Below are positions 56 to 28,585 of a stretch of 32,000 bases of DNA, piece by piece (position 1 is the stretch's first letter; the number at the start of each line of letters is the position of its first letter). The notes under the pieces were generated by a model. It was not told the origin of the DNA. It searched no databases and worked only from the letters and a program-made list of their open reading frames with translations. The position numbers were made by a program, and so were the translations under genes. The stretch is from Candidatus Saccharimonadota bacterium. GTDB taxonomy: Archaea > Nanohalarchaeota > Nanosalinia > Nanosalinales > Nanosalinaceae. Location of the stretch: contig NZ_CP180230.1 in assembly GCF_047555085.1 (NCBI RefSeq), positions 720,001 through 752,000 on the forward strand, read 5' to 3'.

Positions 56-697
56 TCAAAGGCCTCTAACATCCGACTGAGAAAATCCTCCACGCGAAGC
101 ATTATACAAGGCCTTTATCGAGGCCTCCGGAAGAGGATAATCCCAGACACGGACATGAGCCAGTTTTCCTCTGCCATAGCTACCTCCATTTCTATTCTCA
201 CATATCTTATATGCATTGAACTGTCCAGAAGTCAAGTTAGAAGAAGTATCCAGAAGTTCACCATTCCTGTATGCCTTGGCACCATTGGGGCCGACTTTCC
301 AAACAATATTTACCCAGCCTGCTCCGTTAACATTATTCCATCTAAGTCTAGTATTGGATACTTCATTCAGAACAAGATTGCTTCCATTGTAATATAGCTG
401 AAGAGAATTAGATACAGTGTAGTCATCAGTTGTAGAAAAATATGAATTCTGTATATTATCTGTTTTCAGCCAGATAGAAACCGTATGACTCCCATTCCAG
501 TTAGGCGCAGAAGAATAAACGCGGCCATCCTGTCCATCAAACTCGTACGCAGATTCTCCCAGAGGCCCGGAAACGTCCTGCGTAACACCAACACTCAAAG
601 AACCATGATGCTCTCTCCCCGAATAATCCAAAGCATTTCCAGAGGCCTCCTGCAAAGGCCAGTATCCAACAGTCCGCGTAAATATTTTCGATCTCAT
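56..697 (-). CDS. LamG/concanavalin-A-like jelly-roll protein, single domain (module 1, member A1)
   Basis: 213-aa ORF with ATG at 697 and TGA at 56-58. Laminin_G_3-type pattern: 'VGYWPLQEASGNALDYSGREHHGS', 'AYEFDGQDGRV' and C-terminal 'GKLAHVRVWDYPLPEASIKALYN'. The first 17 and last ~30 residues nearly match A2 (19269..19931); the core is not alignable. No signal peptide is visible. Confidence 0.8.
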   Translation of the reverse strand: MRSKIFTRTVGYWPLQEASGNALDYSGREHHGSLSVGVTQDVSGPLGESAYEFDGQDGRVYSSAPNWNGSHTVSIWLKTDNIQNSYFSTTDDYTVSNSLQLYYNGSNLVLNEVSNTRLRWNNVNGAGWVNIVWKVGPNGAKAYRNGELLDTSSNLTSGQFNAYKICENRNGGSYGRGKLAHVRVWDYPLPEASIKALYNASRGGFSQSDVRGL

Positions 698-706
698 AAA
701 TTTGAT

Positions 707-1456
707 TCAGCTCCTCGAAAATCCCCAATTAGCATTTCTCCCAACATTATACAGCTTCCAGACCTGCTGCTGAGACAAGGCCTCAGAATAAATCCTTACT
801 TCATCGATCTCTGAGTTCCCTGATGTTACGCTGCCATTACTGTCATCATATCTGGCGCCTATTTGTGTATCCTTGGAATGTGATATAGATCCATAGGATG
901 CCGGCGAACCCGGATCATATGCAGTGGTTTCGGCCTCTGTACCATCCAGTAAAATCCTCATACTGTCTTTATCATTATCTCTCATAACCACTGCATGATG
1001 CCAGTTTCCATCAGCGACCACTTGAGTTGTCCTATATACAATCTCATCATTGCTTCCATCATCTATGGAAATTCTTAGATATCCTTGAATAATCCAGCTG
1101 TAAAAACCTGCAAAGCCTGCACTTTCATCCCTGTTATCAATAATAGGGACATTTCCGCTTGTATCGGAGGTCTTAAACCAAAAAGAGACACTGAATGATG
1201 AACTGCCGAATGTACTGGCAAAGCTATGTGGCACATTCACGTAATCATCGCTCCCATCAAAACTAAAGGCCTCAGAGCCTCCGACACCGGAAGCGCCTGT
1301 AGTAATTCCACCATTCAAAGATCCATCATTGCTCCCCCAGGAGTCACTGATAACACCTGAAGATACATCACTTGAATCCATACTCCAGCGACTAACAGCT
1401 GAAGAAGGCCTGACTTTGTCCGGATGTACAGTTGCCTCATTCAGATTTTTAGTCAT
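707..1456 (-). CDS. LamG-like domain protein (module 1, member B1)
   Basis: 249-aa ORF whose ATG overlaps the C1 stop (ATGA at 1453-1456). Hallmarks are 'SDSWGSNDGSLNGGITTG..SEAFSFDGSDDYVNV' and 'IDEVRIYSEALSQQQVWKLY'. Residues 1-73 and the last 33 match B2; the middle is divergent. Confidence 0.8.
   Translation of the reverse strand: MTKNLNEATVHPDKVRPSSAVSRWSMDSSDVSSGVISDSWGSNDGSLNGGITTGASGVGGSEAFSFDGSDDYVNVPHSFASTFGSSSFSVSFWFKTSDTSGNVPIIDNRDESAGFAGFYSWIIQGYLRISIDDGSNDEIVYRTTQVVADGNWHHAVVMRDNDKDSMRILLDGTEAETTAYDPGSPASYGSISHSKDTQIGARYDDSNGSVTSGNSEIDEVRIYSEALSQQQVWKLYNVGRNANWGFSRS
717..785 (-). repeat. 69-nt block identical to 19951..20019 (B C-terminus)
   Basis: Base-by-base comparison gives 69/69 identity, flanked by ~85-90% identity that runs through the B-A junction. 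Confidence 0.9.
1266..1342 (-). repeat. 77-nt block (1 mismatch) shared with 20476..20552 (B N-terminal region)
   Basis: 52 identical nt, one A/G difference, then 24 identical nt. Confidence 0.9.
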
Positions 1457-2859: not shown

Positions 2860-3546
2860 CTACTTGTTTATCCTCTTCACGATATGTATACTGGCTTCGT
2901 ACAGGCCTAGCATAGGCAACGTGATCAAGGCCTGAGAGATTATATCAGGTGGTGTTGCGAAAGCAGCCAGCACCAAAACAGCTATGATAAAGTATCTGCG
3001 GTACTGCTTCATCATACCGGAATTTATAAGGCCTAGACGCGCCAGTAAAGCCGATATTATCGGCAGCTGGAAGAAGATCCCTGTGAAAGTGGAAAGTTTC
3101 AGTGCAAATCCTATAGTGCTTTGAAGGCCCCATACAGAGTTTACTGTGCTGGCTGATGAGAAGGCCTGGAAGAATGCAAGGCTTGTCTTGACTATGAACT
3201 GGTATGCGAAAGTCGCTCCTCCTATAAAAAGTATTATAGAGAAAGGTAGAAAGTTTCTGAGCGATGTGTACTCTCTTCTTGTAAGGCCTGGTTCTGCGAA
3301 CTTCAAGGCCTGGTAGACGATCACTGGAAGTGTCAGTACTATCCCTATGATTATTGAAATCATTAACTGGGTGTAGAAGACTTCGAAAGGTGTGAACGCG
3401 TTCAGACTGAATCCTAGATCAGTCTGGAAGAATGAAAGTATCATTCCGGATTTGTAGAAAACTCCTGCAGTGGCTAAAACTATGAATATAGAAGTGAAAA
3501 TCAGGCGTCTCCTGAGCTCTCTCAAATGGTGTTCAAAACTGTTCAT
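2860..3546 (-). CDS. tatC: Twin-arginine translocase subunit TatC
   Basis: 228 aa and polytopic. TatC motifs are 'HLRELRRRL', 'FAEPGLTRRE', 'FFQLP' and 'ATPPDIISQ...LYE'. It starts 16 nt downstream of tatA. Confidence 0.9.
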   Translation of the reverse strand: MNSFEHHLRELRRRLIFTSIFIVLATAGVFYKSGMILSFFQTDLGFSLNAFTPFEVFYTQLMISIIIGIVLTLPVIVYQALKFAEPGLTRREYTSLRNFLPFSIILFIGGATFAYQFIVKTSLAFFQAFSSASTVNSVWGLQSTIGFALKLSTFTGIFFQLPIISALLARLGLINSGMMKQYRRYFIIAVLVLAAFATPPDIISQALITLPMLGLYEASIHIVKRINK

Positions 3547-3562: not shown

Positions 3563-3769
3563 TTACTCGCTAGAATCCTTAACGTCCTCTACCTCTGATT
3601 CTACATCCGGAGCAACGTCTTTGCCGACTTCCTCGGCTTCCTGCATAGACTTCTTGTACTCCTTCTTCGACTCACCCAGAGAACGGGCAAGCTGAGGTAG
3701 CTTCTTAGGACCTATAAGCAGAGCAAAAATCGCCGCTGCAATCAAGATAATCTCCCAGTTACCAAACAT
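3563..3769 (-). CDS. tatA: Twin-arginine translocase subunit TatA/E
   Basis: 68 aa. An N-terminal TM plus hinge 'WEIILIAAAIFALLIGPKKLPQLARSLG' is followed by an acidic tail. A TATA-like TATTTATT lies 22 nt upstream of the ATG. Confidence 0.85.
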   Translation of the reverse strand: MFGNWEIILIAAAIFALLIGPKKLPQLARSLGESKKEYKKSMQEAEEVGKDVAPDVESEVEDVKDSSE

Positions 3770-3828: not shown

Positions 3829-5187
3829 TCACAGGCCTCTACTGTTCACAGTGAACTTTCTCATGTCCCGGCCTCTAGTCCCCCAACGATACAGTTCGAA
3901 AATCTCTTCCGGGCTTAAAGCTCTGTTGTATACTCTCAAGTCATCGATGAGGCCTTGGAAGTACCCATAGGGATCTGGTGTCTGTTCATCTGTAGTCCCT
4001 CCTATATCTAATGGATAATCATTTGTCCATCCTGAAATATTGCCTGCACCTTCGTCCACTTTAACTCCGTCTACATAGGCTTTTACGCCGGCACCTTGCT
4101 CATATACTCCTGTGACATGATGCCAGTTACCATCACGAACTCCAGAGGCATACGCATAAGCATCGTTCGACCCATCCTGATAGGAAAAACGCAGATCTCT
4201 TTCACCATTGGTTATGATATCCCATACCTTATGCACCCCACCGGCAAGCTCTCCCTTCCCAACTAAAACATGAGAATAACCCGTAAGAGAAGATTTAAGC
4301 CAAAAAGAACACGTTAACGATTCTCCAGAACCGATATCAAACGCAACACTGTCCGAAACTTCTACTCTATCATCATTCCCGTCAAAATCAGCTGCCTGAC
4401 CTCTTATCGCATCATTACTCCACGAAAGACCTCCACTAGTTGTTCCGTTATTCGATCCCCAGGAATCATCCACGTTTCCATCAAAGGCCCAGCGAGAAAC
4501 AGCCGAAGAATCAGAATCATTCGGAGGCCTCGCATAATCTCCAGATCCCCATTCGTGTAGAGTCTTTATTTCATCGGATGAAAGTGTGCGGGAGTAGAAT
4601 CTTGCATCCGTCATGTTTACGTTGCTCCAGCTGTTGTATACCGCGGCGATCCAAAGAGGATCTGTGGACACGTTTGATGGAGATGGAACGGATGTAGTTG
4701 AGCCATCTAGCTCGCCGTCCAGATAAACTTTCCATTCTGATCCATCATATTGCAAGGCTACGTGATGCCATTTTCTGTCATCTACTACTGTATTACCTAT
4801 AACTTCTGTACTTCCACCACCCACACCGATGTAGAATTTATTCTGCTCTGGATGGCTGCTGTTAGAAAACTGTAAGCTAAACTGGCCTGCCTGATAAGTC
4901 TCATCTGCCGGGGACTGACCGAAAAACTTTTGCTCATCTCCAAAACTTCCTTTCCTTTTGATCCATGCTGTGAAAGTCCAAGGCGGAGAAGTAGTATCGA
5001 GATTGCTTCCGGAAACCTTTACAACATCATCGTTTCCGTCAAAACTGTAGCTTGTTAGGCCTCCTTTACCGGCTACACCTTGCGTAACACCGCCATTCAA
5101 AGATCCATGATTTCCGTTGCCAGAAAGATCATAGGCCTTTGATCCGGAATCTTCGTGTAGAGGCCACCAGCCAATTAATCCAGTCAT
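3829..5187 (-). CDS. Tandem two-LamG-domain protein (member D)
   Basis: 452 aa with two LamG_3 units. Unit starts are 'WWPLHEDSGSKAYDLSGNGNHGSLNGG..YSFDGNDDVV' and 'SRWAFDGNVDDSWGSNNGTTSGG..ADFDGNDDRV'; unit ends are 'TDARFYSRTLSSDEI' and 'IDDLRVYNRALSPEEI'. It ends in SRGL, as A1 ends in VRGL. Confidence 0.8.
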   Translation of the reverse strand: MTGLIGWWPLHEDSGSKAYDLSGNGNHGSLNGGVTQGVAGKGGLTSYSFDGNDDVVKVSGSNLDTTSPPWTFTAWIKRKGSFGDEQKFFGQSPADETYQAGQFSLQFSNSSHPEQNKFYIGVGGGSTEVIGNTVVDDRKWHHVALQYDGSEWKVYLDGELDGSTTSVPSPSNVSTDPLWIAAVYNSWSNVNMTDARFYSRTLSSDEIKTLHEWGSGDYARPPNDSDSSAVSRWAFDGNVDDSWGSNNGTTSGGLSWSNDAIRGQAADFDGNDDRVEVSDSVAFDIGSGESLTCSFWLKSSLTGYSHVLVGKGELAGGVHKVWDIITNGERDLRFSYQDGSNDAYAYASGVRDGNWHHVTGVYEQGAGVKAYVDGVKVDEGAGNISGWTNDYPLDIGGTTDEQTPDPYGYFQGLIDDLRVYNRALSPEEIFELYRWGTRGRDMRKFTVNSRGL

Positions 5188-5209: not shown

Positions 5210-5932
5210 TTATACTGAGAGTTCGATGTTGTTGATTACTGCTGTTTTTTCTACGTTGGAGTTCTCGAGTTCGATATGCATCCAGTAGTCGTTGCCTGTT
5301 CCTCCTGAAAGATTTGTGAGGCTGTAGGAGCTTGTTCCGTCCTGTAGTGTTATTGTTTGTTCGCTGTCAGCAGTTCCGTTTCCTGTGGTGTCTTCGTATA
5401 CTGTAACTGTTGCTGTGGTGTCTGTTGGGACGTTGGCGTCGACTGTTGCTACTGCGCTTACGCCTTCAATCTCGACGTAGTCTATTACTGCTGTTTCTTC
5501 TATGTTGGAGTTTTCGAGTTCAAGTTCTATCCAGTAATTGTTTCCTGGCTCTCCTGTAAAGTCAGATAGCGAATAAGTGTTTGTTCCATCCTGTAGCTGT
5601 ACTGAACTGGTGTTATCGGCTACACCGTTTCCAGAAGTATCTTCGTATATAAATAATGTTGCTGCCTGTCCGTTCAGCGTTGTGGCTGCTGTAAGTTCTA
5701 CTCCTCCTGTTCCTGTTGATATGCTCGTACTTACAGCCAGGGTTCCATTATTTTCTGTCTGTACCCGTAACTGGTTGAGTTCAGCATTAGAAGGATCAAC
5801 AAGATTCAGTGCTCCTGTACCTGTTTCCGTCTGGACTCTAACTATAGGATTATCTACATCAGTAGGCTCGAATACCGGTACTTCTTCTGTACCTGTTTCT
5901 GTCCCAACTTTCACAGTCCCTATTTTAGCCAT
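5210..5932 (-). CDS. Acidic Thr/Gly-rich protein with two ~66-aa tandem repeats, function unknown
   Basis: 240-aa ORF. Residues 91-156 and 174-239 repeat the pattern 'VYEDT(S/T)GNG.AD...LQDGT..YSL...G..GN.YW..ELENSN.E.TAVI'. It starts 15 nt downstream of the Tat-signal gene. I recognise no family. Confidence 0.6.
   Translation of the reverse strand: MAKIGTVKVGTETGTEEVPVFEPTDVDNPIVRVQTETGTGALNLVDPSNAELNQLRVQTENNGTLAVSTSISTGTGGVELTAATTLNGQAATLFIYEDTSGNGVADNTSSVQLQDGTNTYSLSDFTGEPGNNYWIELELENSNIEETAVIDYVEIEGVSAVATVDANVPTDTTATVTVYEDTTGNGTADSEQTITLQDGTSSYSLTNLSGGTGNDYWMHIELENSNVEKTAVINNIELSV
5216..5662 (-). repeat. Two in-frame tandem coding repeats (~198 nt each, at 5216..5413 and 5465..5662) inside the 240-aa gene
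   Basis: Period is 83 codons. Nucleotide identity is roughly three quarters by eye, for example ATTACTGCTGTTT(T/C)TTCTA(C/T)GTTGGAGTT(C/T)TCGAGTT. Confidence 0.8.
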
Positions 5933-5947
5933 TGGTTAACACACTCC

Positions 5948-6232
5948 TTAGTCAAGGTCTGTCCTGTACCACATCTGGCCTACTTCAGGATTGCTTGGAT
6001 CTGCTGTTCTCTTGTCAAGGACAAAGTTCTTGATCTCACCTGCAACTTCTGTTCCAGGCATACCGGAAAGAAAATTATTTCCATTAACATCAATAGAATC
6101 TGATCCAATCCTGACACGTGAAGCTGCAGAAGGAATAAGGCTTAAAGCACCAATGCTCAGAGATCCGATTCCAAGCATCTTCATGAAACCTCTGCGGGAA
6201 ACACCTTCCTCTTGTTCTATTTCTTCAGACAT
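5948..6232 (-). CDS. Small secreted protein with twin-arginine (Tat) signal peptide
   Basis: 94 aa. Tat motif 'VSRRGFMKM' is followed by the h-region 'LGIGSLSIGALSLIPSAAS', leaving a mature part of only ~55 aa. A TATA-like box lies 24 nt upstream. Confidence 0.7.
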   Translation of the reverse strand: MSEEIEQEEGVSRRGFMKMLGIGSLSIGALSLIPSAASRVRIGSDSIDVNGNNFLSGMPGTEVAGEIKNFVLDKRTADPSNPEVGQMWYRTDLD

Positions 6233-6256
6233 TACATCGAGTAATTGTATTCAGTC

Positions 6257-6264
6257 ATTTTTAA
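6257..6264 (-). promoter_or_regulatory. TATA-box-like element upstream of the Tat-signal small-protein gene
   Basis: Minus-strand TTAAAAAT lies 24 nt before the ATG at 6232, which implies a leaderless or very short leader transcript. Confidence 0.45.
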
Positions 6265-6354
6265 CCTTTAACCCTGCAAGAGTGTCAGACAGTGAAATAA
6301 CAGAATACAGAGTTCTCAAGTTCTGGCAAAAATGTGAAGATGAGTAGAGAATTG

Positions 6355-6398
6355 GAAACAAAAATGTAAGAAACGGGGAAAAAGGAAATAGAGGCCTT
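6355..6398 (-). terminator. Oligo-T termination region after rps7
   Basis: The minus strand after the TAA reads AAGGCCTCTATTTCCTTTTTCCCCGTTTCTTACATTTTTG, with two T5 runs. Archaeal RNAP terminates at oligo-T. Confidence 0.35.
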
Positions 6399-7028
6399 TT
6401 ATCGTGCGCCGTCTGCCTCTCTTTCACGTCTTTCCTTCTCACGGACTGCCTTGACGGAGTTATCTCCTTCTGCAGCAGCCATAAGTTCATCTGCAAGAGT
6501 CTGTGAGGCCTCTTCAGATGATGTTAGTCTGTCCTGGTATTCTCCCTGGACAAGCAGTCTGAGTGCGAGATCTACTCTTCTCTGAGGTGCAACTAGAACT
6601 GCTTTACGTGCTCTTGCTCCTCCTCTTGAGTATGAGACTACTTCCTCGACTGGAGCCGAGTTCTCAATAGCGTCTACAAGAATCTGAATCGGATTTTCTC
6701 CGGTCTCTTCTTCGATTATTTCAAATGATTCTTCGATTAGCTTCCAGAGTCGCTCGCTTGAGCCTGTGTTCTGTCCGGAAGATACAAGATGTTTCCCTCC
6801 AGAATGTCCTGCAACGTACATCCTGTTGAGAAGTCTTTCTACAATCGGTACATCCGCCTTGTAGAACTGTTTCTCGCTGTGTCTTCCCTTTGAACGTGGT
6901 GCTGAGATGTTTTCAAGATTGAGATATCGGACAAGTCCATCGTCGCTTACTTCTACTTCCGATGCATCCCATCTTCCGAATGTAAGAATCTCGTCTTCCA
7001 GTTCCAGTGTTGCTGCGTCTGTTGTCAT
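6399..7028 (-). CDS. rps7: 30S ribosomal protein S7 (uS7)
   Basis: 209 aa with the archaeal uS7 pattern ('RSKGRHSEKQF', 'NPIQILVDAIENSAP.EEV', 'REKERREREADGAR' tail). GGTGAT lies 7 nt upstream of the ATG, and the gene directly follows rps12. Confidence 0.95.
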   Translation of the reverse strand: MTTDAATLELEDEILTFGRWDASEVEVSDDGLVRYLNLENISAPRSKGRHSEKQFYKADVPIVERLLNRMYVAGHSGGKHLVSSGQNTGSSERLWKLIEESFEIIEEETGENPIQILVDAIENSAPVEEVVSYSRGGARARKAVLVAPQRRVDLALRLLVQGEYQDRLTSSEEASQTLADELMAAAEGDNSVKAVREKERREREADGAR

Positions 7029-7525: not shown

Positions 7526-9103
7526 TCAATCTATGAACAGCCACAGTGCGAACACCAAGAGGCCTCCTCCGATAAGCTGCAAGGTATTGGAAGGCATCGT
7601 CTGTGCGAAAAGAAAGACAGCGGATAGAATCAGGCCTGTAATCAGTATTTCCTCGTGATCTTCGGAATGTTGCTGCACCTGAACGTTCTTCTGCTCCTGA
7701 TCTTCAAGTAGCTTGGCGATCTTTGAAGGAGCCTTGGTCAGTAATTCCTTGTTCTGGTAAAAGTCGATCATGAAAGTCTTGCCGAGTTCTTTAGGCGAGT
7801 TCTCCTTCTTCAGTATATCCTCCACTTGATCCCTGTAGTCATCTGTGAGCTGGGCCTCAGGATTTATTGTCAACAGTATTCCTTCGATAGTTACCAGTGT
7901 CTTACCTGTCAGGACAAGATTCGTCGGCAGGTATACTCCTCTCCGTGAGGCCTTTACGATCATCTTGAACAGGGTACTTGTCATGCTCTGATCTTTGACT
8001 CTTGCATTTCTCAGGGTCAGCACCAGTTCTTCGATATCCTGTTTGAAGGCGTCAGTATCTGCGTCAGGTGCAACGTGTCCAAGCTCCTTTATGACTTCGA
8101 AAGCAGAGTCGACATCTTCATTTGAGATATGGAGAAGTAGAACACCAAGCCTTTCACGCGTGGATTTAGTAAGTTTTCCGACCATGCCGAAGTCGATAAG
8201 TATTATGCTTCCATCTTCACCTATGAAGAAGTTAGATGGATGAGGATCAGCATGGAAGAATCCATCACGAATCACCTGATTCAGGCCCATCTTTATTCCA
8301 CGTCGTGTAAGCTCAGCAGTATCAATATTTAGATCTTCCAGTGCCTCAGTATCAGTACATTTTACACCTCCAACTTCTTCCATAACCAGAACTTTCTCTG
8401 TTGTATACTGACTGTAAACTTCCGGTATCTTAACCCTGTCATTGTCAGACATGTTCTGACGTATTATATCTGCGTTCCGTCCCTCCTGCTGGAGATCCAT
8501 CTCTTCCCGTATCCATTTATCGAACTCTTTGACCAGGTCAACAAGCTGCATGCCGCTTAAACGACTGGAAACATTTTCCGCCCGCTTGGCCAGGAACTCA
8601 ATGATATCCAGGTCCCTGTGGACTTTCTCCTTTATGCCAGGCCTCCGGACCTTCACCACGACATCCTCTCCATCCGGAAGTGTCGCAGAGTGGACCTGGG
8701 CGATCGAGGCAGCGGCCATCGGCTCTTCATCAAATTCATCAAAGTTATCATCCAAGGGACCGATCTCCTCTTCAACTATATCCACGGCCTCTTCAGAGTC
8801 GAAAGGAGATACAGAATCTTCAAGGCCTTCAAGCTCCTCGATATATCTGCGCGGAACAATGTCCGGCCTCTGCGCCATTATCTGCCCAAGCTTCACGAAA
8901 GTAGGTCCAAGCTCCTCAAATGTTTCACGCAGCCTCTCCGGCTTCGGCTTCTTCTGCCTGTCTGAAGTAAATCTCTTCGTGAAAGGTAGACGATGCGTTA
9001 AATCAAGTTTGTCGAGAACTATACCAAGCTCCTGATCGGCCATTATATGGATTATCTCATCCAGTCTCTTGATATCGCTGACTTCGTTCTCGACTCTGCC
9101 CAT
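7526..9103 (-). CDS. ABC1/UbiB (AarF) atypical kinase family protein with C-terminal TM helices
   Basis: 525 aa: 'LGPTFVKLGQIMAQRPDIVP..YI.EL..L.D.V.PF', 'AAASIAQVH.A.L.DGE.VVVKV.RPGI', 'HADPHP.N'. The C-terminus is hydrophobic. Confidence 0.85.
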   Translation of the reverse strand: MGRVENEVSDIKRLDEIIHIMADQELGIVLDKLDLTHRLPFTKRFTSDRQKKPKPERLRETFEELGPTFVKLGQIMAQRPDIVPRRYIEELEGLEDSVSPFDSEEAVDIVEEEIGPLDDNFDEFDEEPMAAASIAQVHSATLPDGEDVVVKVRRPGIKEKVHRDLDIIEFLAKRAENVSSRLSGMQLVDLVKEFDKWIREEMDLQQEGRNADIIRQNMSDNDRVKIPEVYSQYTTEKVLVMEEVGGVKCTDTEALEDLNIDTAELTRRGIKMGLNQVIRDGFFHADPHPSNFFIGEDGSIILIDFGMVGKLTKSTRERLGVLLLHISNEDVDSAFEVIKELGHVAPDADTDAFKQDIEELVLTLRNARVKDQSMTSTLFKMIVKASRRGVYLPTNLVLTGKTLVTIEGILLTINPEAQLTDDYRDQVEDILKKENSPKELGKTFMIDFYQNKELLTKAPSKIAKLLEDQEQKNVQVQQHSEDHEEILITGLILSAVFLFAQTMPSNTLQLIGGGLLVFALWLFID

Positions 9104-13451: not shown

Positions 13452-15248
13452 CTATTCCTCCTCTACCTCGATGTCAGTATCTATCATCAGTGATTTTAAC
13501 TCATCGAGTAGAAGCAGCATAGCGTGAGGGATTTCTGTCTCCTCGAACTCTCCGTCTTCACCGTTCTGCTTCACGACTTTGTTCTGTTCACGGTCAAGGT
13601 AACCTCTGTCACCCGACTCCGTGTCGACGTGGATCTCGCTGGCGTCAGCTCCGAACCGCTCCTTCAGAAGCAGTGAAGCTCCGTGTCCAACGAAAACGTC
13701 CTTTTCCATCTCTCCCAGCCGGAGGCCTCCCTCCTGACTGCGTCCTTCTGTAGGCTGCTTTGTAAGCAGTGTGACAGGTCCACGGCTTCTTGCGTGCACC
13801 TTGTCCCCGACCATGTGACTCAACTTGAGGTAGAAACCAGGCCCGATCATAATCTCGGCCTCCATCTCCTCACCGGTTACACCGTTGTACATGGTCTCTT
13901 TACCGGATGACTCGAATCCAAGCTCCTCAAGCTGATCTCTGAGCTTGTCCTTGTCCTCTCCGTGATAAGCTGTGGCATCGACTTTCTCTCCACGGAGAGC
14001 TCCAACTTTTCCTCCAATTAACTCGATTATCTGCGCCACGGTCATACGGCTTGGGATAGCGTGCGTGGAAAGAATCATGTCAGGAGTAATACCCTGTTTC
14101 GTGAAAGGCATGTTCTCCTCAGGAGCGATCATTCCGATAACTCCTTTCTGTCCGTGTCTTGTCGCAAACTTGTCTCCAAGCTCAGGGATACGGTACTCAC
14201 GCATCTTTGCCTTGATCAGCTTGTCACCGTCACCGGTCTCGGAAAGCATAACCTTGTCAATAACTCCCTGCTCTCCGTGCCTTACTGTGAGACTTGTCTC
14301 TCTCCTCTCTGCAAGCCCCATCTTCATCTCTTCGCCGCCTCCTCCAAGGAACTTCGGAGGAGAAGTCTTACCTACAATCACATCATCGGAATCTACCTGT
14401 GTCTCAGGATTAACGATTCCATCATCATCAAGATGCTCATAGGCCTCTTCACGCCTGTATCCACGGACATCCTTATCCGGAATAGAAATTCTATCCTTCT
14501 GACCTCCGTAGAAACGCTTGGCCTCTGTCTTGTAAGTCCTCATATAAGTTGAACGTCCCAGGCCTCTCTCGATAGAGGCCTTGTTCATGATTACTGCGTC
14601 CTCGATGTTGTATCCATCGAAGGATGCAAGAGCAATCATCATGTTCTGGCCGATCGGATGCTCTCCGACAAGAGTATCGTATGTGTTTGTCTCTACTATC
14701 GGCTGCTGAGAGTAAGTCAGCACGTTAGATCTTGTATCAAATCTCTGATGGAACTCGCTTGTAGGCATTCCAAGTCCCTGTCCTGCCATCTTTGCACCGA
14801 AGTTCACACGGTCTCCACGATTGTGTTCAGGATAGACTGTCAGAGAAGCTGATACACCGTGGATAATCTCGGAGTCGATCTCCATGTGAGTATGCTCGCC
14901 AGTAACTTCCTCTTCATTCATAGCTACGTAGGCATTCTCTTCCTCTTCAGCATCGATGTACTCGATGATTCCTTCATCTTCAAGATCTTCAAGACTTATT
15001 TCTCCTTCCTGAAGCTGCTCTCTCTGCTCATCTGTAAGAAGAGGTTCACCGTCTTCAACGATGACTACAGGCCTCATGACTCTTCCAGAGTCTGTATTGA
15101 TCCTGATCTCATCACGGTTCTCGTTGTAGTATACCGATACTTCCTGATCAAGCTCTCCTTCACGCCTCTTTTCAATCAGATTCTCACGGATCTCCTCAGG
15201 AGAATCAACATCGTCAACTATCTGACCGTCAAGGAATACGTCAGTAAT
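13452..15248 (-). CDS. rpoB1: DNA-directed RNA polymerase subunit B' (C-terminal half of split RpoB); start codon unresolved
   Basis: Conserved 'RHGQKG', 'GEMEKD' and 'PSRMT.AQ'. The first ATG is at 15077. The frame stays open and RpoB-like for 59 more codons ('TDVFLDGQIVDDVDSPEEIRENLIEKRREGEL..INTDSGRV'), up to the TGA at 15255-57. That stretch contains no ATG, GTG or TTG. I placed the 5' end at the ATT at 15246-48, which has GGTGAT 5 nt upstream. Confidence 0.85.
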   Translation of the reverse strand: MTDVFLDGQIVDDVDSPEEIRENLIEKRREGELDQEVSVYYNENRDEIRINTDSGRVMRPVVIVEDGEPLLTDEQREQLQEGEISLEDLEDEGIIEYIDAEEEENAYVAMNEEEVTGEHTHMEIDSEIIHGVSASLTVYPEHNRGDRVNFGAKMAGQGLGMPTSEFHQRFDTRSNVLTYSQQPIVETNTYDTLVGEHPIGQNMMIALASFDGYNIEDAVIMNKASIERGLGRSTYMRTYKTEAKRFYGGQKDRISIPDKDVRGYRREEAYEHLDDDGIVNPETQVDSDDVIVGKTSPPKFLGGGGEEMKMGLAERRETSLTVRHGEQGVIDKVMLSETGDGDKLIKAKMREYRIPELGDKFATRHGQKGVIGMIAPEENMPFTKQGITPDMILSTHAIPSRMTVAQIIELIGGKVGALRGEKVDATAYHGEDKDKLRDQLEELGFESSGKETMYNGVTGEEMEAEIMIGPGFYLKLSHMVGDKVHARSRGPVTLLTKQPTEGRSQEGGLRLGEMEKDVFVGHGASLLLKERFGADASEIHVDTESGDRGYLDREQNKVVKQNGEDGEFEETEIPHAMLLLLDELKSLMIDTDIEVEEE

Positions 15249-15253
15249 AAGCC

Positions 15254-15260
15254 ATCACCT
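15254..15260 (-). promoter_or_regulatory. Shine-Dalgarno-like AGGTGAT in front of the rpoB' conserved region
   Basis: The GGTGAT-N5 spacing to the ATT at 15246-48 is the same as the GGTGAT-N5-ATG spacing of rpoA' (13447-52 to 13441). The in-frame TGA (15255-57) lies inside this motif. Confidence 0.5.
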
Positions 15261-15326
15261 TTGAAGTTTTTGTACAGTTTCCAAACGTTTCAAGTCCATC
15301 AACTTTTCTCATTATCATTTTCTGAA

Positions 15327-19268: not shown

Positions 19269-19931
19269 CTAGATTGTTTTACTGTCTGACTGTCCGAATC
19301 CGCCTCTGGAAGCATTGTACAAGGCCCTGATAGAGGCCTCCGGCAGAGGATAATCCCAGATCCTGACGTGAGCGATTTTTCCGTTGAATGGTTCGGTGTT
19401 GTCGGCGCGTCTTCCTATCTTCATGCTTGAGGCCGGTTGATTCAGGTTGCCTGTCTTGGAGAAAGATCCGATTTTCCGGCCGTTGTTGTACAGCTCCACA
19501 GTATTTCCATCGTATCGGACTACTGCAAAGTTCCAGGTATTCTTGAGACCGGAAACCGGTTGCTGCGTGTTACTCCATCCTTCAGCATCTGTCTGTACAT
19601 GCACCTCCAGATTATCGTCGCTGTCATCAACCTTCAGATTGATATTTTCAAAGTATCCGACCACAGAATGCCTGCTGGAATCACTGCCCTCATAACGCCA
19701 CCACGCCGCCAGAGTCAAACGATCTCCGGAAGGAAGAGCGCTGTCGACAACAATCTCATCATCAGTACCATCGAAATCCATAGCAGAACTGCCTACAGGC
19801 CCAGAAACACCATAAGATGAGACATTCGCAGTCGAAGCATGATTCTCATTGCCACTATAGTCATAGGCCTGGCCGCTACTTTCCTGCAAAGGCCAGTATC
19901 CAACAGTCCGAGTAAAAATCTTAGATCTCAT
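19269..19931 (-). CDS. LamG-like domain protein (module 2, member A2)
   Basis: 220 aa. 'MRSKIFTRTVGYWPLQE' and 'AHVRIWDYPLPEASIRALYNASRGGF' match A1; the core is divergent. Confidence 0.8.
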   Translation of the reverse strand: MRSKIFTRTVGYWPLQESSGQAYDYSGNENHASTANVSSYGVSGPVGSSAMDFDGTDDEIVVDSALPSGDRLTLAAWWRYEGSDSSRHSVVGYFENINLKVDDSDDNLEVHVQTDAEGWSNTQQPVSGLKNTWNFAVVRYDGNTVELYNNGRKIGSFSKTGNLNQPASSMKIGRRADNTEPFNGKIAHVRIWDYPLPEASIRALYNASRGGFGQSDSKTI

Positions 19932-19940
19932 AACTTCGAT

Positions 19941-20666
19941 TCAACTCCTTGAAAATCCCCAATTAGCATTTCTCCCAACATTATACAGCTTCCAGACCTG
20001 CTGCTGAGACAAGGCCTCACTGTAAATCCGGACCTCATCAATTTTTCCTTTAAACATATATTTGGACTGTCCCTGCCCATCTGCATTTGTGTCAAGACTT
20101 CCCATGATCATATGTTTTCCACTTGTATCCCCCATCGTCCCTGACGCAGATTGTTCGCTAACTTTCGAGCCGTTCACGTAGATACGTTGTTTTGAACCAT
20201 CCCAAGTGCCGGTAATATGATACCATCCAGTATTTATCACCGATCCAATTCCCGCCCGTAAATCAACTTTTCCGCCATCAAGACCTAACCTGAAGAGGAA
20301 ATCATCTGTATCATCTTGATAAGACAGGACATACGCGCCCGAGTTTCCAACCACAACATTGTAACTGCTGTTGGAACTTGAACCCGTTACTTTCACCCAC
20401 GAGGAAACAGTGAGCCGTGTAAAACCTCCTAGCACATCCCCCACGGCTACATAATCATCGCTTCCGTCGAAACTGAAGGCCTCAGAGCCTCCGACACCGG
20501 AAGCGCCTGTAGTAATTCCACCATTCAGAGATCCATCATTGCTCCCCCAGGAATCCTGTAAAGTTCCTGAACTGACATCAGAACTGTCCATACTCCAGCG
20601 TGAGACAGCAGAAGCAGGCCTCACTTTATCCGGATGAGTCGAGGCCTGTGAAATATCCCTAGTCAT
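19941..20666 (-). CDS. LamG-like domain protein (module 2, member B2)
   Basis: 241 aa. The N-terminal ~73 residues and the C-terminal 33 residues ('IDEVRIYSEALSQQQVWKLYNVGRNANWGFSRS') match B1. It has an ATGA overlap with C2. Confidence 0.8.
   Translation of the reverse strand: MTRDISQASTHPDKVRPASAVSRWSMDSSDVSSGTLQDSWGSNDGSLNGGITTGASGVGGSEAFSFDGSDDYVAVGDVLGGFTRLTVSSWVKVTGSSSNSSYNVVVGNSGAYVLSYQDDTDDFLFRLGLDGGKVDLRAGIGSVINTGWYHITGTWDGSKQRIYVNGSKVSEQSASGTMGDTSGKHMIMGSLDTNADGQGQSKYMFKGKIDEVRIYSEALSQQQVWKLYNVGRNANWGFSRS
19951..20019 (-). repeat. 69-nt block identical to 717..785
   Basis: See the partner entry. Confidence 0.9.
20476..20552 (-). repeat. 77-nt block (1 mismatch) shared with 1266..1342
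   Basis: See the partner entry. Confidence 0.9.
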
Positions 20667-22048
20667 ACATCAAGGCCTCCCATCCTCGCCAGAGTCTCAA
20701 TTTCGGATTTTGAAAGAGTTCTGTTGTAGAATCTTACATCCTGGATCTGGCCTTTCCAGTTGTAATTCCTCTGAGCCATATTTCCAATCAATATTTTTTC
20801 GTCAAGCAGAGAAGAGTCGTTAGGAATTGATAGCGAGGCCTTATTTTGAGCGTCAAGGTATACTTCATACTTATCCTCTGTGAGATCGACGACGAGTGTG
20901 AAAAAATGCCATTCGCCGTCATTAAAAGTTTCCGAACTAACGAACTCCACCAAGTTCCCTCCAGACTCGACATAATATGATCTGAATACTCCTGAATCTC
21001 TAAGTTCAGCTATCTGCCAGTCAGGAGGAGAATCAGGATCACTTCCACTCTGCAGGATAGCATTAATCGAATTAGGGGTCTCTTCAGCTTTGAACCATCC
21101 GGTAACAGTTGATCTAGACCCTCCTCCTACCGGAGAATCAGGAATCTGGATCTGATCATCGCTGCCATCGAAACTTCTGGCCTTCGCTCCTCCAAGGCCT
21201 GCGGCTGTAGTAGTACCAGTTACAGAAGTGGAATCATTGCCTCTACCAGATAGATCGTAGGCCTTCCCTGAGCCGTCTTCGTTGAGAGGCCAGTGCCCGA
21301 CAAGGCCCGAAGTCAGTCTGTCCTGATCAGTAATATTTTGAGTAGACGTCCTCTGATACAGGGCCTCTACTTCTGCTGTGCTTAGCACTCTGTCATATAT
21401 TCTGACGTCGTCTATATATCCGTCTGTGAAGTACTGTCCGTCTCCTCTGTTACCGATCTTTGTTGTATTTGAAGAGGAAGTTGATTCTGTTGCGTTCACT
21501 GTTGAGATCAGGTTTCCTCCTCTGTAGTATCTTATCTTGGAACCGTCGTAAGTCACGCAGACGTGGATCCACTGTCCCTGAGGCCAGCCGCTTTCAAGAT
21601 TGTGTTGAGAACCGCCAAACCAGAGCTGGACACCGGAACTGTAGTCGTAGCGGAACAGGGTGCCGTCACTTCCATCGTAATTTGCAAGTATGTTGAATTC
21701 ATCGCTTGACCCGCCGCCTCTGTCATATATCCATGCAGACATCGTCAACTGATCCATAGACCCGACACTGAATTTTTCACCGGTATCCACGTAGTCATCA
21801 TTTCCATCAAAGGCCTTCGCCTGACCGATCTTTCCAGATACAAAACCTGCAGAAGTATTATCTGTCCCGTCGTGATTCAGGGCCTTGTCCTCGACCGTTC
21901 CGTCAAAAGGATAATATGCAACGAGGCCGTCAGCCAGGCTTCCAAGCTCGTAACCCTGTCGGAGGCCTGAAGAGAAATCATTCCTGGCCTCGTCTGTGAG
22001 GCCTGTAGAATCTCTTCTTGTCAGCTCTCCAGGATTCCAGCGTACCAT
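20663..22048 (-). CDS. Tandem two-LamG-domain protein (module 2, member C2)
   Basis: I moved the start to the ATG at 22048 ('MVRWNPGELTRRDSTG'), by homology to C1 ('MVRWNSEELTRRDSTG') and because TTATATTT lies 21 nt upstream. The ORF-track start at 22099 adds 17 unmatched residues. Confidence 0.8.
   Translation of the reverse strand: MVRWNPGELTRRDSTGLTDEARNDFSSGLRQGYELGSLADGLVAYYPFDGTVEDKALNHDGTDNTSAGFVSGKIGQAKAFDGNDDYVDTGEKFSVGSMDQLTMSAWIYDRGGGSSDEFNILANYDGSDGTLFRYDYSSGVQLWFGGSQHNLESGWPQGQWIHVCVTYDGSKIRYYRGGNLISTVNATESTSSSNTTKIGNRGDGQYFTDGYIDDVRIYDRVLSTAEVEALYQRTSTQNITDQDRLTSGLVGHWPLNEDGSGKAYDLSGRGNDSTSVTGTTTAAGLGGAKARSFDGSDDQIQIPDSPVGGGSRSTVTGWFKAEETPNSINAILQSGSDPDSPPDWQIAELRDSGVFRSYYVESGGNLVEFVSSETFNDGEWHFFTLVVDLTEDKYEVYLDAQNKASLSIPNDSSLLDEKILIGNMAQRNYNWKGQIQDVRFYNRTLSKSEIETLARMGGLDV
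21282..21415 (-). repeat. 134-nt block identical to 2042..2175
   Basis: See the partner entry. Confidence 0.9.
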
Positions 22049-22069
22049 GGGTAGAAGTTTGTGTAATGA

Positions 22070-22077
22070 AAATATAA
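22070..22077 (-). promoter_or_regulatory. TATA-box-like element upstream of LamG module 2
   Basis: Minus-strand TTATATTT lies 21 nt before the ATG at 22048. Confidence 0.45.
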
Positions 22078-22404: not shown

Positions 22405-24381
22405 ATGTGTGGAATCACTGGAGCACGTGAAAAAGAAACAGTAAAGGCCTTGAACAGGCATCTGAAGCATAGAGGCCAGAGCTGCAGCATCGAAGAAACA
22501 GAAAACTTTTCTCTAGGCCATTACCTTCATTCCGTCGTTGGAACAGTCGAACAACCACTGGAAGAAGAAGGCCTCCTGTCAGCGAACTGCGAGATATACA
22601 ACTGGAAGGAACTGAACAGAAAATACGGCTGGGATACGGAAAACGATGCAGAAACACTTCTCAAACTGCTTGAGAAAAAAGGAGTCAAAGGCCTGAAAGA
22701 AATCGACGGGATATACGCATTCGCATATCTGAAAAACGGTGAAATTATACTTGCACGTGACAGACTCGGCGTTAACCCGATCTGGTACTCTGAAAAAGAA
22801 TTCGCATTCGCCTCGGAGAAACAGGCTCTGGAAAAGGAAGGATTCACAGAAATAAAGGAGCTTCACCCGAGACAGATACTTGTCCACGACCTGGAGAGCC
22901 AGGAAACCTCTTTCAGGCAGAGAGAATTCTTCGAGATAACCGCGGATGAACAGGAAAAAGTTACAGATGAAAACATAGACGAAACAGCAGAACAGATCAA
23001 GGAGATATTCCTGAAAGCTGTGGAGAAAAGAGTGCCTGAAGGAGATGTCGGACTTCTTTTCTCTGGAGGCCTAGACTCCACTCTTGTGGCAGCGGCTTTA
23101 CAGGAACTCGATAAAGATTTCACTGCATACACCGCAGGGATACAGCACGGGAACGTCTCAGCTCCAAGAGACTACGAAAAGGCCCACGAAGTAGCTGAAA
23201 AAATGGGATTCCCTCTGGAAAGATACGAGGCCTCCCTAGAAGAGGTAGAGAAAGTTTTACCGGATCTTGTGGACTGGATCTCTACTACTAACGTCGTGAA
23301 GCTTGGAGTGGCTCTGCCTTTCCATTTCAGTCTGGCGCAGAAGAATCAGGCCTCTGAGCAGGTCGTTTTCACGGGATTCGGTTCCGAACAGCTTTATGCT
23401 GGTTACGCACGGCAGCAGGGATACCTGAACAAGGAGTGTCTGTCCGATCTGAGAGGGATTTTCCATGAAGATCTGTATCGGGATAACGTAGTAAGTTTCA
23501 GGAATGGCAGGGAGTTACGAGTACCTTTCCTGGATGAAGAACTTGTTGAGTATGCACTTTCTATACCTGAAGATATGAAAAGGACCGAAGAGTACCGTAA
23601 ATATGTTTTGAGGAAGGCTGCGGAGAAGCTTGGCGTCCCTGAAGATGTGGCGTGGCGGAAAAAAGTTGCTGCACAGTACGGATCAAACTTTGACAAGGCT
23701 GTAGGGAAACTGGCGAAAAACTCCGGCTTTGACCAGAAACAGAAATACGTCAACCAGTTCCGTGAAAAACCTAATAAGAAACTTGTTGCTCTTACTTCAG
23801 GAGGAAAGGACTCGAACGCAGCTTTGTTCCGCATGTGGCGTCGAAACAACGAAATATCGTGTCTTCTAACCCTGAGATCTGAAAACAAGGCCTCTTACAT
23901 GTTCGACTCGAAGAAATCGGATAAAGACCTGGAATGGCAATCAGAAAAACTTGGTATTCCGCTTATAACACAGGAAACAAAGGGAGAAAAAGAAAAAGAG
24001 CTTGAAGATCTGCGTAAAGGCCTGGAAAAAGCGAAGGAAAAATTTGATGTTGAAGGAGTTGTCGCCGGCGCTATTGAGTCAAGTTATCAGCGAGATCGCG
24101 TGGATAAAGTCGCTGAAGAGGTAGGCCTGAAAGTTTTCACACCGCTGTGGCAGTTTGATCAGAAACAGTACATGCACTGGCTTGTACGGGAAGGCTTCGA
24201 TGTTAAAATAACTGATGTGGCGGCTAGAGGTCTCTCAGAGGATTGGGAAGGCAAAGTTCTGGATAAAGAAGGTGTTGAGGATCTTCTGGAGTTAGCGGAC
24301 GAGTATCGTTTCCATCCTGCCGGTGAAGGCGGAGAGTACGAGACAAAGGTTGTCGGTTTCCCGGAAGAGCTTGTCGATTAA
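22405..24381 (+). CDS. Fusion: glutamine-amidotransferase/asparagine-synthase-like protein plus Dph6/MJ0570-type PP-loop ATPase (diphthine-ammonia-ligase-like)
   Basis: 658 aa. It has an 'MCGI' Ntn nucleophile and AsnB-like 'NCEIYN', 'DGIYAFA' and 'LARDRLGVNPIWY'. The first PP-loop is 'LFSGGLDS' (res 219-225). The second PP-loop is 'ALTSGGKDS' (res 462-470), followed by 'GAIESSYQR.RV' and 'PAGEGGEYET', typical of the MJ0570/Dph6 family. Confidence 0.8.
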   Translation: MCGITGAREKETVKALNRHLKHRGQSCSIEETENFSLGHYLHSVVGTVEQPLEEEGLLSANCEIYNWKELNRKYGWDTENDAETLLKLLEKKGVKGLKEIDGIYAFAYLKNGEIILARDRLGVNPIWYSEKEFAFASEKQALEKEGFTEIKELHPRQILVHDLESQETSFRQREFFEITADEQEKVTDENIDETAEQIKEIFLKAVEKRVPEGDVGLLFSGGLDSTLVAAALQELDKDFTAYTAGIQHGNVSAPRDYEKAHEVAEKMGFPLERYEASLEEVEKVLPDLVDWISTTNVVKLGVALPFHFSLAQKNQASEQVVFTGFGSEQLYAGYARQQGYLNKECLSDLRGIFHEDLYRDNVVSFRNGRELRVPFLDEELVEYALSIPEDMKRTEEYRKYVLRKAAEKLGVPEDVAWRKKVAAQYGSNFDKAVGKLAKNSGFDQKQKYVNQFREKPNKKLVALTSGGKDSNAALFRMWRRNNEISCLLTLRSENKASYMFDSKKSDKDLEWQSEKLGIPLITQETKGEKEKELEDLRKGLEKAKEKFDVEGVVAGAIESSYQRDRVDKVAEEVGLKVFTPLWQFDQKQYMHWLVREGFDVKITDVAARGLSEDWEGKVLDKEGVEDLLELADEYRFHPAGEGGEYETKVVGFPEELVD

Positions 24382-27367: not shown

Positions 27368-28585
27368 TCAGCTGATCAGTATTCTTCCGTTCTCAGGCCT
27401 GAAACTGGCTCCTTCCTTCAGACGAGCAGCCCCGAAGCTCAGTATATCAAATGACCCATGCCAGCTCCCTGACAAAACAGTAGAGTTGGAAACATTCAAG
27501 GTAGCTTTAGAGCCCAGAGACTCAAACACAGAAGAGACCTCAGACTGAAAGACAGAAGAAAGCTCGAAAGATCTGCCTGAAATATCGTGAGTTGAGTTCG
27601 ATATACACTCGTTGAAGAGGCCTCTACGATCGCAGATAACGAAATCACTCTGATAGCGTATCAGGACGACTCCTGACCCTCCGTCTCCTCCAGATCCAAA
27701 TTCATAGTTACCTCCTCCGCCACCTCCACCCGTATTTTCCATAGCATTATGACCATCAGCTGATGATGATTGCCCATCGCTTGGCGCAGCACTATTGCCC
27801 CCTCCTCCTTGACCTCCATAGGCAGCTCTCACTTCTCCAGATATATCTGTTCGGCCTTCATGCCCTCCTCCGCCACCTCCTGCAAACCAGCCATTTTCTC
27901 CATATTCATCTCCGAATACATCCCCGTAGTATACTCCATCTCCACCATCTCCTGGCTGTTGAATATATTCATCAGAACATTCAGAATCTAGTCCTGTTTC
28001 TCCAGCACCACCTCCACCAGCTGCTAGACCTGATCTACCACAGTTAACATCGGCATCACCTCCTGAATACCCATTACTTGTCAAAGATTCTCCTCCTGTC
28101 CCATAATCTGTTCCGCCTCCACCTCCTGAAGCACCATCTTTTCCATCACAACCATGTGGTGCACCACCCCCACCTCCCTCAACAGAGATAGATCCGAAAC
28201 TGGATTTCTCACCGTTTTCAGCATTATTTTTCGCTCCATAACCACAGGAACCATCCCCCGGATTAGTTCCTCCGTTACCACCATCTCCAACAGATATAGA
28301 AATAGTATCATTCTGTGAAACATCAACGCTATCATAGACAACACCACCAGCACCACCACCGCCGCCTCTAGTAGCACCGCCTCCACCCCCACCAGCTACT
28401 ACAAGTACGTGTGCCTCATCCACGTTGTCAGGAACAGTCCATGTATGATTACCTACCTGCTCAAAGGCCTTAACCTCGTACTCCTGTGCAGAAGAAATGG
28501 ATAAACCTGCGACCAGGATAAGTATGAACAGGCCTGTAAATTTTCTGAAGCAAGATTTTTGCAACTGATACTGCACCTCTAACAT
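27368..28585 (-). CDS. Secreted or anchored glycine-rich repeat protein
   Basis: 405 aa with an N-terminal hydrophobic segment 'FTGLFILILVAGLSISSAQE'. It carries 'HTWTVPDNVDEAHVLVVAGGGGGG', 'ISISVGDGGNGG' and '..GGSGVVLIRY', as in proteins labelled glycine-rich domain-containing. It also has several Cys residues and a non-Gly C-terminal ~100 aa. Confidence 0.65.
   Translation of the reverse strand: MLEVQYQLQKSCFRKFTGLFILILVAGLSISSAQEYEVKAFEQVGNHTWTVPDNVDEAHVLVVAGGGGGGATRGGGGGAGGVVYDSVDVSQNDTISISVGDGGNGGTNPGDGSCGYGAKNNAENGEKSSFGSISVEGGGGGAPHGCDGKDGASGGGGGTDYGTGGESLTSNGYSGGDADVNCGRSGLAAGGGGAGETGLDSECSDEYIQQPGDGGDGVYYGDVFGDEYGENGWFAGGGGGGHEGRTDISGEVRAAYGGQGGGGNSAAPSDGQSSSADGHNAMENTGGGGGGGNYEFGSGGDGGSGVVLIRYQSDFVICDRRGLFNECISNSTHDISGRSFELSSVFQSEVSSVFESLGSKATLNVSNSTVLSGSWHGSFDILSFGAARLKEGASFRPENGRILIS

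Follow-up and report, generated by a model that had tools for sequence, protein, structure and literature searches.

Nanohaloarchaea are obligate symbionts, and proteins with laminin G-like (LamG) domains are the usual suspects for recognition of their hosts, so far described only as strain-specific. In this work we have analyzed a window of 32,000 nucleotides (nt), positions 720,001 to 752,000 of contig NZ_CP180230.1, which belongs to the chromosome of Candidatus Nanosalina sp. VS9-1 (Nanohaloarchaeota) and is neither virus nor plasmid. It carries two copies, modules 1 and 2, of a triad of LamG genes, C, B and A, in which conserved segments (frames) enclose very divergent LamG cores. Among described systems, the triad may first be compared with TafC, which is the laminin-G-like adhesin at the tip of haloarchaeal Tat-fimbriae (tafi) and is exported via twin-arginine translocation (Tat) (PMC11821415, PMC12337348). 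The triad proteins and a further LamG protein of the window, D, share with TafC the LamG_3-type domain, TafC being their best NCBIfam match, and the halophilic archaeal source. Both are also linked to Tat, by a demonstrated Tat signal in tafi and by adjacency to tatAC here, and both comprise a few subunits from one operon that are presumed to be joined by terminal strands. In contrast to TafC, however, A, B, C and D lack an N-terminal TafA-like pilin domain and a twin-arginine signal. Their scores with the TafC family NF052521 are 30–99 bits against a cut-off of 410, and only profile positions 148–369, the LamG part, are covered. An arginine pair followed by a hydrophobic region is absent from the triad proteins and present only in the separate orf94; genes for TafA, TafE, TafD and TafG were not found, and no scanned open reading frame (ORF) of the window matched signal peptidase or DUF5305. 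Furthermore, these papers report no exchange of frame/core cassettes for tafi (PMC11821415, PMC12337348).

In nanohaloarchaea themselves, strain-specific LamG proteins have been treated as likely host-attachment factors (PMC7443923, PMC10266531). The LamG/PKD proteins of the cultured Ca. Nanohalobium, Nanohalococcus and Nanohalovita resemble the triad in phylum, domain superfamily, strain-specificity and proposed host recognition, but they are described as secreted or membrane-bound, often very large, and contain up to five LamG domains (PMC7443923, PMC10266531). The triad, in contrast, consists of three small signal-less proteins in a fixed arrangement, with two conserved sites and a defined division into frame and core.

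With regard to the mode of evolution, HsdS of Type I restriction-modification systems is instructive, in which recombination in conserved regions reassorts two variable recognition domains and creates new specificities. Its two variable domains, split and flanked by conserved regions, closely parallel those of C; fold and function are unrelated, and we draw an analogy of evolutionary mechanism only and claim no membership. Likewise, mosaic flagellins, pilins and phage tail fibers have conserved assembly termini that flank hypervariable exposed parts exchanged by homologous recombination. There, assembly via the conserved ends is proven, whereas for the triad it is presumed, and the triad has no viral relatives. 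Finally, hypersaline and marine prokaryotes have flexible genomic islands of the replacement type, which hold very divergent alleles at one site, between conserved core genes, in co-occurring strains. The triad sites agree with this, as they combine conserved core-gene flanks with divergent triads, with two alleles found in one sample (L017 and L099; loci of relatives are given by L-numbers). Here, however, no whole cluster is swapped but a part of a gene, about 400 nt long, with intragenic frames on either side. The evolutionary mode of conserved frames with recombining variable segments is well known elsewhere. Our literature search found no earlier description of a signal-less C-B-A triad, of its two sites, of frame/core cassettes or of the position at the tat locus, nor of LamG mosaicism in DPANN archaea. 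Within the literature searched, this upholds the statement of a first-pass annotation of the window that no characterized system has this layout.

Both modules are read from the minus strand in the order C-B-A at the positions listed in Table 1. As the first-pass annotation had described, they share an ATGA overlap of C and B and a B-A spacer of 9 nt. The overlap lies within a 25-nt exact repeat (1450-1474 = 20660-20684). In both, the B stop and the A start are in-frame, three codons apart (698-709; 19932-19943); a B/A overlap of 4 nt is found instead in L097, L096, L098 and L099. Since every homologue starts with M..RW, the start of C2 was set to the ATG at 22048. An NCBI entry of Ca. Nanosalina sp. 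VS9-1, a LamG protein encoded on a contig of 1,046,238 bp, has the same sequence as C2 (100% identity); for B2, C1 and orf94, no identical protein was on record. The assignment to LamG, made before from the letters alone, was correct for all six triad proteins, which match the hidden Markov model (HMM) of PF13385, Laminin_G_3, with E-values of 5e-10 to 4e-46 and 40–157 bits against a cut-off of 27.6. C1, C2 and D contain two such domains each. The proteins start 9–40 residues ahead of the LamG domain, and their frame motifs include GHWPLNE, SAVSRWSMD and MRSKIFTRTVGYWPL.

Frames and cores differ sharply in their divergence between the modules. The constant segments are 62–88% identical in nucleotides per segment, and nucleotide identity covers only about one third of the constant parts, whereas the remainder is conserved as protein only (dN 0.1–0.3, dS about 1). 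The frames had been taken to be alike even at synonymous sites; this applies to the exact tracts, but not elsewhere, and 101 of the 314 amino-acid-identical codons of the constant segments carry synonymous differences. The synonymous divergence dS, estimated by the NG86 method, is 1.0–2.5 in the N-frame and C-frame of C and in both A frames (about 1 or above in four of the seven frames) and low only at exact tracts, i.e., in the C linker (0.28), the B N-frame (0.60) and the B C-frame (0.52). The nonsynonymous divergence dN of the frames is 0.06–0.36 with a dS of about 0.5–2.5, and their dN/dS is about 0.1–0.2 with a dS of about 1. It is hence mainly purifying selection at the protein level that keeps the frames, and not homogenization as had been proposed. 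The cores, which could not be aligned by eye, do align with proper tools and are all LamG by HMM, yet they share only 14–26% amino-acid identity, and with dN saturated (1.1–1.7) there is no ordinary dN/dS. In the codon-aware alignment and in sliding profiles, identity falls from about 100% to about 30–40% within a few codons. The boundaries are therefore as sharp as first perceived, stepwise and without smooth decay.

Within the frames, codon-aware alignment recovered each of the identical blocks reported before (134/134, 69/69, 76/77 and 30/30 nt) together with a 29-nt block in A. When the 273 mismatches were permuted over the 1176 aligned constant nt (20000 trials), the expected longest identical run had a mean of about 23 nt and a 99.9th percentile of 46, and no permutation (0/20000) reached 134 nt. 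Along with the cores shared by divergent genes described below, this supports the earlier view that simple divergence is insufficient. The 134-nt tract is identical between the modules at all 44 third positions, while the homologous stretch in eight other loci agrees with it at just 41–59% of third positions. From this it follows that the tract is not under nucleotide constraint, which rules out a functional RNA or DNA element, and that it represents a recent conversion footprint within VS9-1. The exact tracts are footprints of recent gene conversion, and of the two explanations that had been offered, conversion confined to frame segments is borne out here.

The triad is not limited to VS9-1. 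We found 16 C-type homologues of 402–468 amino acids (aa) in hypersaline metagenomes, all with the same frame/core plan and with median identities of 73% in the linker, 21% in core1 and 19% in core2. The tight C-B-A operon is kept in ten loci, and it occupies one of two sites. At site 1, that of module 1, it stands between TatC and aEF-2 (L097, L098, L016), and at site 2 between the AsnS-Dph fusion and NucS, followed by RadC (L001, L096, L099, L100, L017). Flanking proteins are 78–88% identical to those of the window, triad proteins 41–49%, and judged by these values the triad sites are hypervariable, with conserved genes around them. One sample yielded both L001 and L097 with equal coverage (54x, 53x), and the two probably are parts of one genome carrying both modules. 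As both sites are occupied in relatives, the duplication must be old. Site 1 of a relative further removed (L104 and L105, both NCBI metagenome-assembled genomes, MAGs) reads S7-DUF7838-orf94-tatA-tatC-aEF-2 and contains no LamG genes, which marks the triad as accessory. Further core variants, as anticipated, thus exist at the population level in related metagenome genomes, but no extra silent cassettes were seen in the window. A profile search with the C alignment returned no close relative from genome contigs, the matches being generic LamG proteins of bacteria and, at 28%, a protein in another nanohaloarchaeal MAG; from metagenome contigs it returned 80 loci, of which only L016 and L017 fall into the close family. 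IMG/VR gave only generic LamG matches (26–41% over fragments) and GenBank phages a single cyanophage LamG domain at 30%. A viral origin of the triad was rejected, these matches being generic and the PHROG matches being LamG domains in large virion proteins.

Comparison of these loci also substantiates the second explanation offered, an exchange of cores between constant ends. Single cores recur at 62–100% identity in another genome, at the respective other site or next to cores to which they are not otherwise coupled by relationship. Core2 of C in module 1 is 85% identical to that of L096 at site 2, where core1 of the same gene pair shows only 23%. For B, the core of L097 (site 1) is 95% identical to that of L100 (site 2) and L016, and about 99% over the first 60 codons, within frames of 47–87% identity. 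L096 and L099 share an A core at 82%, and the 16 C proteins include two three-member core2 clusters with unrelated core1. Moreover, the breakpoints are located at frame/core junctions. Between L099 and L100, 7.8 kb contain only 3 mismatches, after which a divergence of 25–35% sets in within the N-frame of B, about 100 nt from its start. L017 and L099, both of one sample, show 100% identity up to the end of the C N-frame, whereas their sequences are unrelated from core1 on. Sharing of cores at high identity was seen only between equivalent positions, as would be expected if both flanking frames must serve as homology arms. L016 (site 1) has a C gene with the same DNA sequence (100%) as C of L099 and L100 at site 2. 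This could be either a whole-gene conversion between sites or, as the contig ends inside the C N-frame, an assembly join, and we give it little weight.

We consider the following explanation probable as a whole. The triad is an accessory, tightly packed operon of Nanosalina-type nanohaloarchaea at two fixed chromosomal sites, with each LamG domain built from a frame and a core, and the cores are drawn from a pool of LamG variants that diverge strongly. The frames remain alike in DNA, and homologous recombination inside them can therefore swap cores singly, and does so between strains as well as between sites. In VS9-1 itself, a few frame tracts were recently homogenized between the modules by non-crossover gene conversion. 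The modules are direct repeats, 19.2 kb apart, that flank the RNA polymerase operon, so that a crossover would be a lethal deletion and presumably only non-crossover conversions survive. Selection by hosts or viruses may uphold the diversity. That the conserved frames act as homology arms for core exchange and conversion is, from the sequence comparisons, very probable.

Some of our observations weigh against this explanation. None of A, B, C and D has a signal peptide or a membrane segment, and neither has the neighboring protein E; the maximal 19-residue hydropathy of A, B, C and D is at most 1.06, compared with 2.4–2.7 in membrane controls. A surface role of these signal-less proteins would hence need an unconventional export route. 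The presumed pair L001/L097 has no raised frame identity (C linker, 74% in nt), which means that conversion between sites is sporadic. For L016 and L100, whose contigs end inside triad frames (at position 1 in the C N-frame and at position 8694 at the start of A, respectively), chimeric assembly is possible; the contigs of L097, L096, L001 and L099 cover unique flanks on at least one side. Finally, the sample of ten loci and 16 C proteins is small and consists mostly of short metagenome contigs. Repeats common to both sites would break short-read assembly, and short-read MAGs probably under-represent triad loci.

Table 1. Genes, segments and exact tracts of the two triads and of the tat locus in the window (tract partners lie in module 1)
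Feature	Position	Strand	Frames	Cores	Remarks
C1	1453..2823	-	2578-2823, 1924-2181, 1456-1542	2182-2577, 1543-1923	module 1; ORF of 456 aa; two LamG (PF13385 x2, E=6e-35)
B1	707..1456	-	1253-1456, 710-814	815-1252	249 aa; one LamG
A1	56..697	-	533-697, 59-169	170-532	213 aa; one LamG
C2	20663..22048	-	21803-22048, 21164-21421, 20666-20752	21422-21802, 20753-21163	module 2; 461 aa; two LamG; AlphaFold2 model with two beta-sandwiches
B2	19941..20666	-	20463-20666, 19944-20048	20049-20462	241 aa; one LamG
A2	19269..19931	-	19767-19931, 19272-19382	19383-19766	220 aa; one LamG
134-nt exact tract, C linker	21282..21415	-			partner 2042-2175; encodes IDDVRIYDRVLSTAEVEALYQRTSTQNITDQDRLTSGLVGHWPL
30-nt exact tract, end of C linker	21171..21200	-			partner 1931-1960
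76/77-nt tract, B N-frame	20476..20552	-			partner 1266-1342; 24+52 nt, one mismatch
69-nt exact tract, B C-frame	19951..20019	-			partner 717-785
29-nt exact tract, A N-frame	19882..19910	-			partner 648-676
tatC	2860..3546	-			PF00902, E=3e-53; 36 nt upstream of C1, same strand; adjacency also in L097, L098
tatA	3563..3769	-			68 aa; TIGR01411, E=1e-12, below cut-off; 89% identical to L104 TatA
D	3829..5187	-			fourth signal-less protein, two LamG; same frame/core mosaic
E	5210..5932	-			240 aa; two repeated beta-rich units; no signal peptide; 88% to L107
orf94	5948..6232	-			small; twin-arginine signal SRRGFMKM and hydrophobic region; TIGR01409, 20.6 bits (cut-off 16.7)

With respect to function, an AlphaFold2 model of C2 was calculated from a 16-row alignment. 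Its mean predicted local distance difference test score (pLDDT) is 66, with 70–90 within two LamG beta-sandwiches; residues 1–35 and 257–288 are not confidently modeled. In this model, the frame comprises the first three strands (42–46, 69–71, 76–80), short N- and C-terminal tails and, at the end of domain 1, the last strand with the helix after it (210–218, 224–236), with an equivalent in domain 2. The core of about 120–145 residues forms most of the beta-sandwich. Foldseek matched the model to laminin LG4-5, neurexin LNS pairs, a trans-sialidase lectin, neurotoxin receptor-binding domains and the carbohydrate-binding domain 4 of arabinanase AbnA (target TM-score 0.75), and all structural matches are extracellular binding modules. 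The products of the triad would form a lectin-like binding complex, in which frames and tails serve folding and assembly and the cores specificity. For a heteromeric complex, as suggested by the first-pass annotation, the only support is the tight C-B-A operon kept in ten loci. We regard a binding role with variable specificity as an evenly balanced proposition.

How such a complex might leave the cell leads to the genes around module 1. At site 1, orf94, E, D, tatA, tatC, C1, B1 and A1 follow each other on one strand, with gaps of 16–59 nt around tatAC. D shares the mosaic of the triad, and the frame/cassette design is hence not confined to the latter; elsewhere in the VS9-1 genome there is another D-type gene (P0062), with which D shares 39% identity, and with the positional counterpart of D in L107 the identity is 43%. 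As E is conserved and not hypervariable, it qualifies as a candidate for an invariant partner of the LamG proteins. About 125 nt are directly duplicated inside E with 249-nt spacing (5223-5347 and 5472-5596, 74% identical), and E has a weak match to DUF7282. The homologues of orf94 are 66–88% identical. Its mature part has about 57 aa and ends with ...EVGQMWYRTDLD, and in related nanohaloarchaea it always lies just upstream of tatA-tatC, with or without LamG genes (L104 9651-11265). It may act as an accessory factor or be itself a substrate of Tat; the idea that it is a dedicated pilot of the LamG proteins is weakened, since it is kept with tatAC where LamG genes are absent.

The location of site 1 within the tatA-tatC cluster suggests a Tat co-export of the LamG proteins. 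These would fold and pre-assemble in the cytoplasm via their frames and tails and cross the membrane through the adjacent TatA/TatC translocase by hitchhiking on a partner with a twin-arginine signal, orf94 or another, a route that we hold to be doubtful. The outcome, likewise doubtful, would be a strain-variable surface lectin complex that functions like the LamG tip adhesin of the haloarchaeal Tat-fimbriae. A natural three-subunit Tat hitchhiker complex is known from E. coli (PMC4273604). The gene string from orf94 to A1 on one strand is in agreement with such a route, as is the LamG part of TafC as best NCBIfam match. LamG genes are inserted on both sides of tatAC, and relatives have kept the order tatA-tatC-C-B-A-aEF-2 (L097) or tatC-C-B-A-aEF-2 (L098). 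On the other hand, orf94-tatA-tatC is conserved in L104 and L105, where site 1 has no LamG genes, and module 2 is not near tat genes. Adjacency can arise by chance in a 1-Mb genome, and the TafC scores are far under the cut-off, with the TafA-like pilin domain, the Tat signal and the other taf genes absent. That triads, D, E and a Tat-signal partner together make up an undescribed Tat-dependent surface lectin complex of DPANN archaea, exported by hitchhiking and retuned in recognition by core swapping, we would put forward only tentatively and do not expect.

Variable ConA-like or SPRY domains bind invaders in eukaryotic restriction factors. By analogy, a cytoplasmic triad might act as an intracellular recognition module that binds virus or plasmid components via its variable LamG cores. 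None of the proteins has an export signal, their hypervariability is typical of arms-race genes, and the triad is accessory, missing from site 1 in L104; all of this would fit. Nevertheless, this function is improbable, as there is no effector domain and no match to a PADLOC defence model, the closest structural relatives are extracellular lectin-type domains, and the secreted patescibacterial relatives with three LamG domains do carry signal peptides. A known defence system was rejected, with no PADLOC match except a stray one at E=0.003.

For the origin of the mosaic itself, one might consider an old duplication followed by divergence under uneven constraint, without any recombination. Most frame segments indeed have a dS of about 1 or more and a low dN, and LamG_3 domains are generally conserved at their ends, to which the frame motifs FDG..D and G.IDDVRIY.R.LS..E...LY correspond and where the Pfam matches start and stop. 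Such a history, however, can yield neither the 134-nt run with zero synonymous change, nor near-identical cores in divergent genes of another site or genome, nor the jump from 3 mismatches in 7.8 kb to 25–35% divergence inside one gene. As sole explanation, plain duplication is contradicted, and we judge it very improbable. Programmed diversification within the cell by a diversity-generating retroelement (DGR), a site-specific shufflon or silent-cassette conversion of the pilE/pilS type is hardly credible: the frame/cassette layout would suit it and DGRs are reported in another nanohaloarchaeon (PMC7443923), but the 32-kb window contains no reverse transcriptase, invertase, integrase or recombinase and, among its repeats, no promoterless core fragments or silent cassettes, the mismatches are not adenine-specific (transitions 116/273, every class present), variation extends over whole 400-nt cores, and the modules are direct and not inverted repeats, both being complete operons. 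For silent cassettes, this result covers the window.

Of the remaining genes of the window, those between the modules are chromosomal housekeeping genes, i.e., those for TatC, ribosomal proteins S7 and S12, an ABC1 kinase and a NusA-like KH protein, furthermore rpoA'', rpoA', rpoB', rpoB'', rpoH, RadC and NucS; beyond module 2 follows the AsnS/diphthamide-synthase fusion. The latter is one ORF of 658 aa (22405-24381, plus strand) with an asparagine-synthase-like amidotransferase and a diphthamide-synthase (Dph6-like) domain, and the fusion is kept in all relatives. The listed ORFs of rpoB'' and rpoB' are separated by a gap of 249 nt (15078-15326), and rpoB' has 541 aa from its first ATG compared with 597 aa in L104; its true start is probably an upstream non-ATG codon. 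A glycine-rich protein of 405 aa (27368-28585, minus strand; PF21722) has an N-terminal hydrophobic segment and matches PHROG 2295 and a PHROG family annotated as 'tail fiber assembly'. It occupies the same place in L099 and is probably a surface protein. In relatives, a DUF7838 zinc-ribbon membrane protein is encoded between S7 and orf94 (L104 9651-9950; L107 3329-3631), of which tblastn found no trace in the window (expected region 6233-6398). The listed ORF 6251-6496 looks non-genic.

For nanohaloarchaea, the triad offers a concrete, small and testable unit, in which binding cores of about 400 nt in three co-operonic proteins are exchanged between strains while the frames remain fixed. Swaps of specificity are tractable by experiment, with chimeras made at the natural breakpoints, and the triad may serve as a marker for strain-level host range in salterns. 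Signal-less lectins beside tatAC also pose an export puzzle, and this links the triad to the Tat-dependent fimbriae recently discovered in haloarchaea. If a Tat-dependent complex were indeed formed, populations would retune the recognition of hosts or viruses by sub-genic core swaps and leave assembly and export undisturbed.

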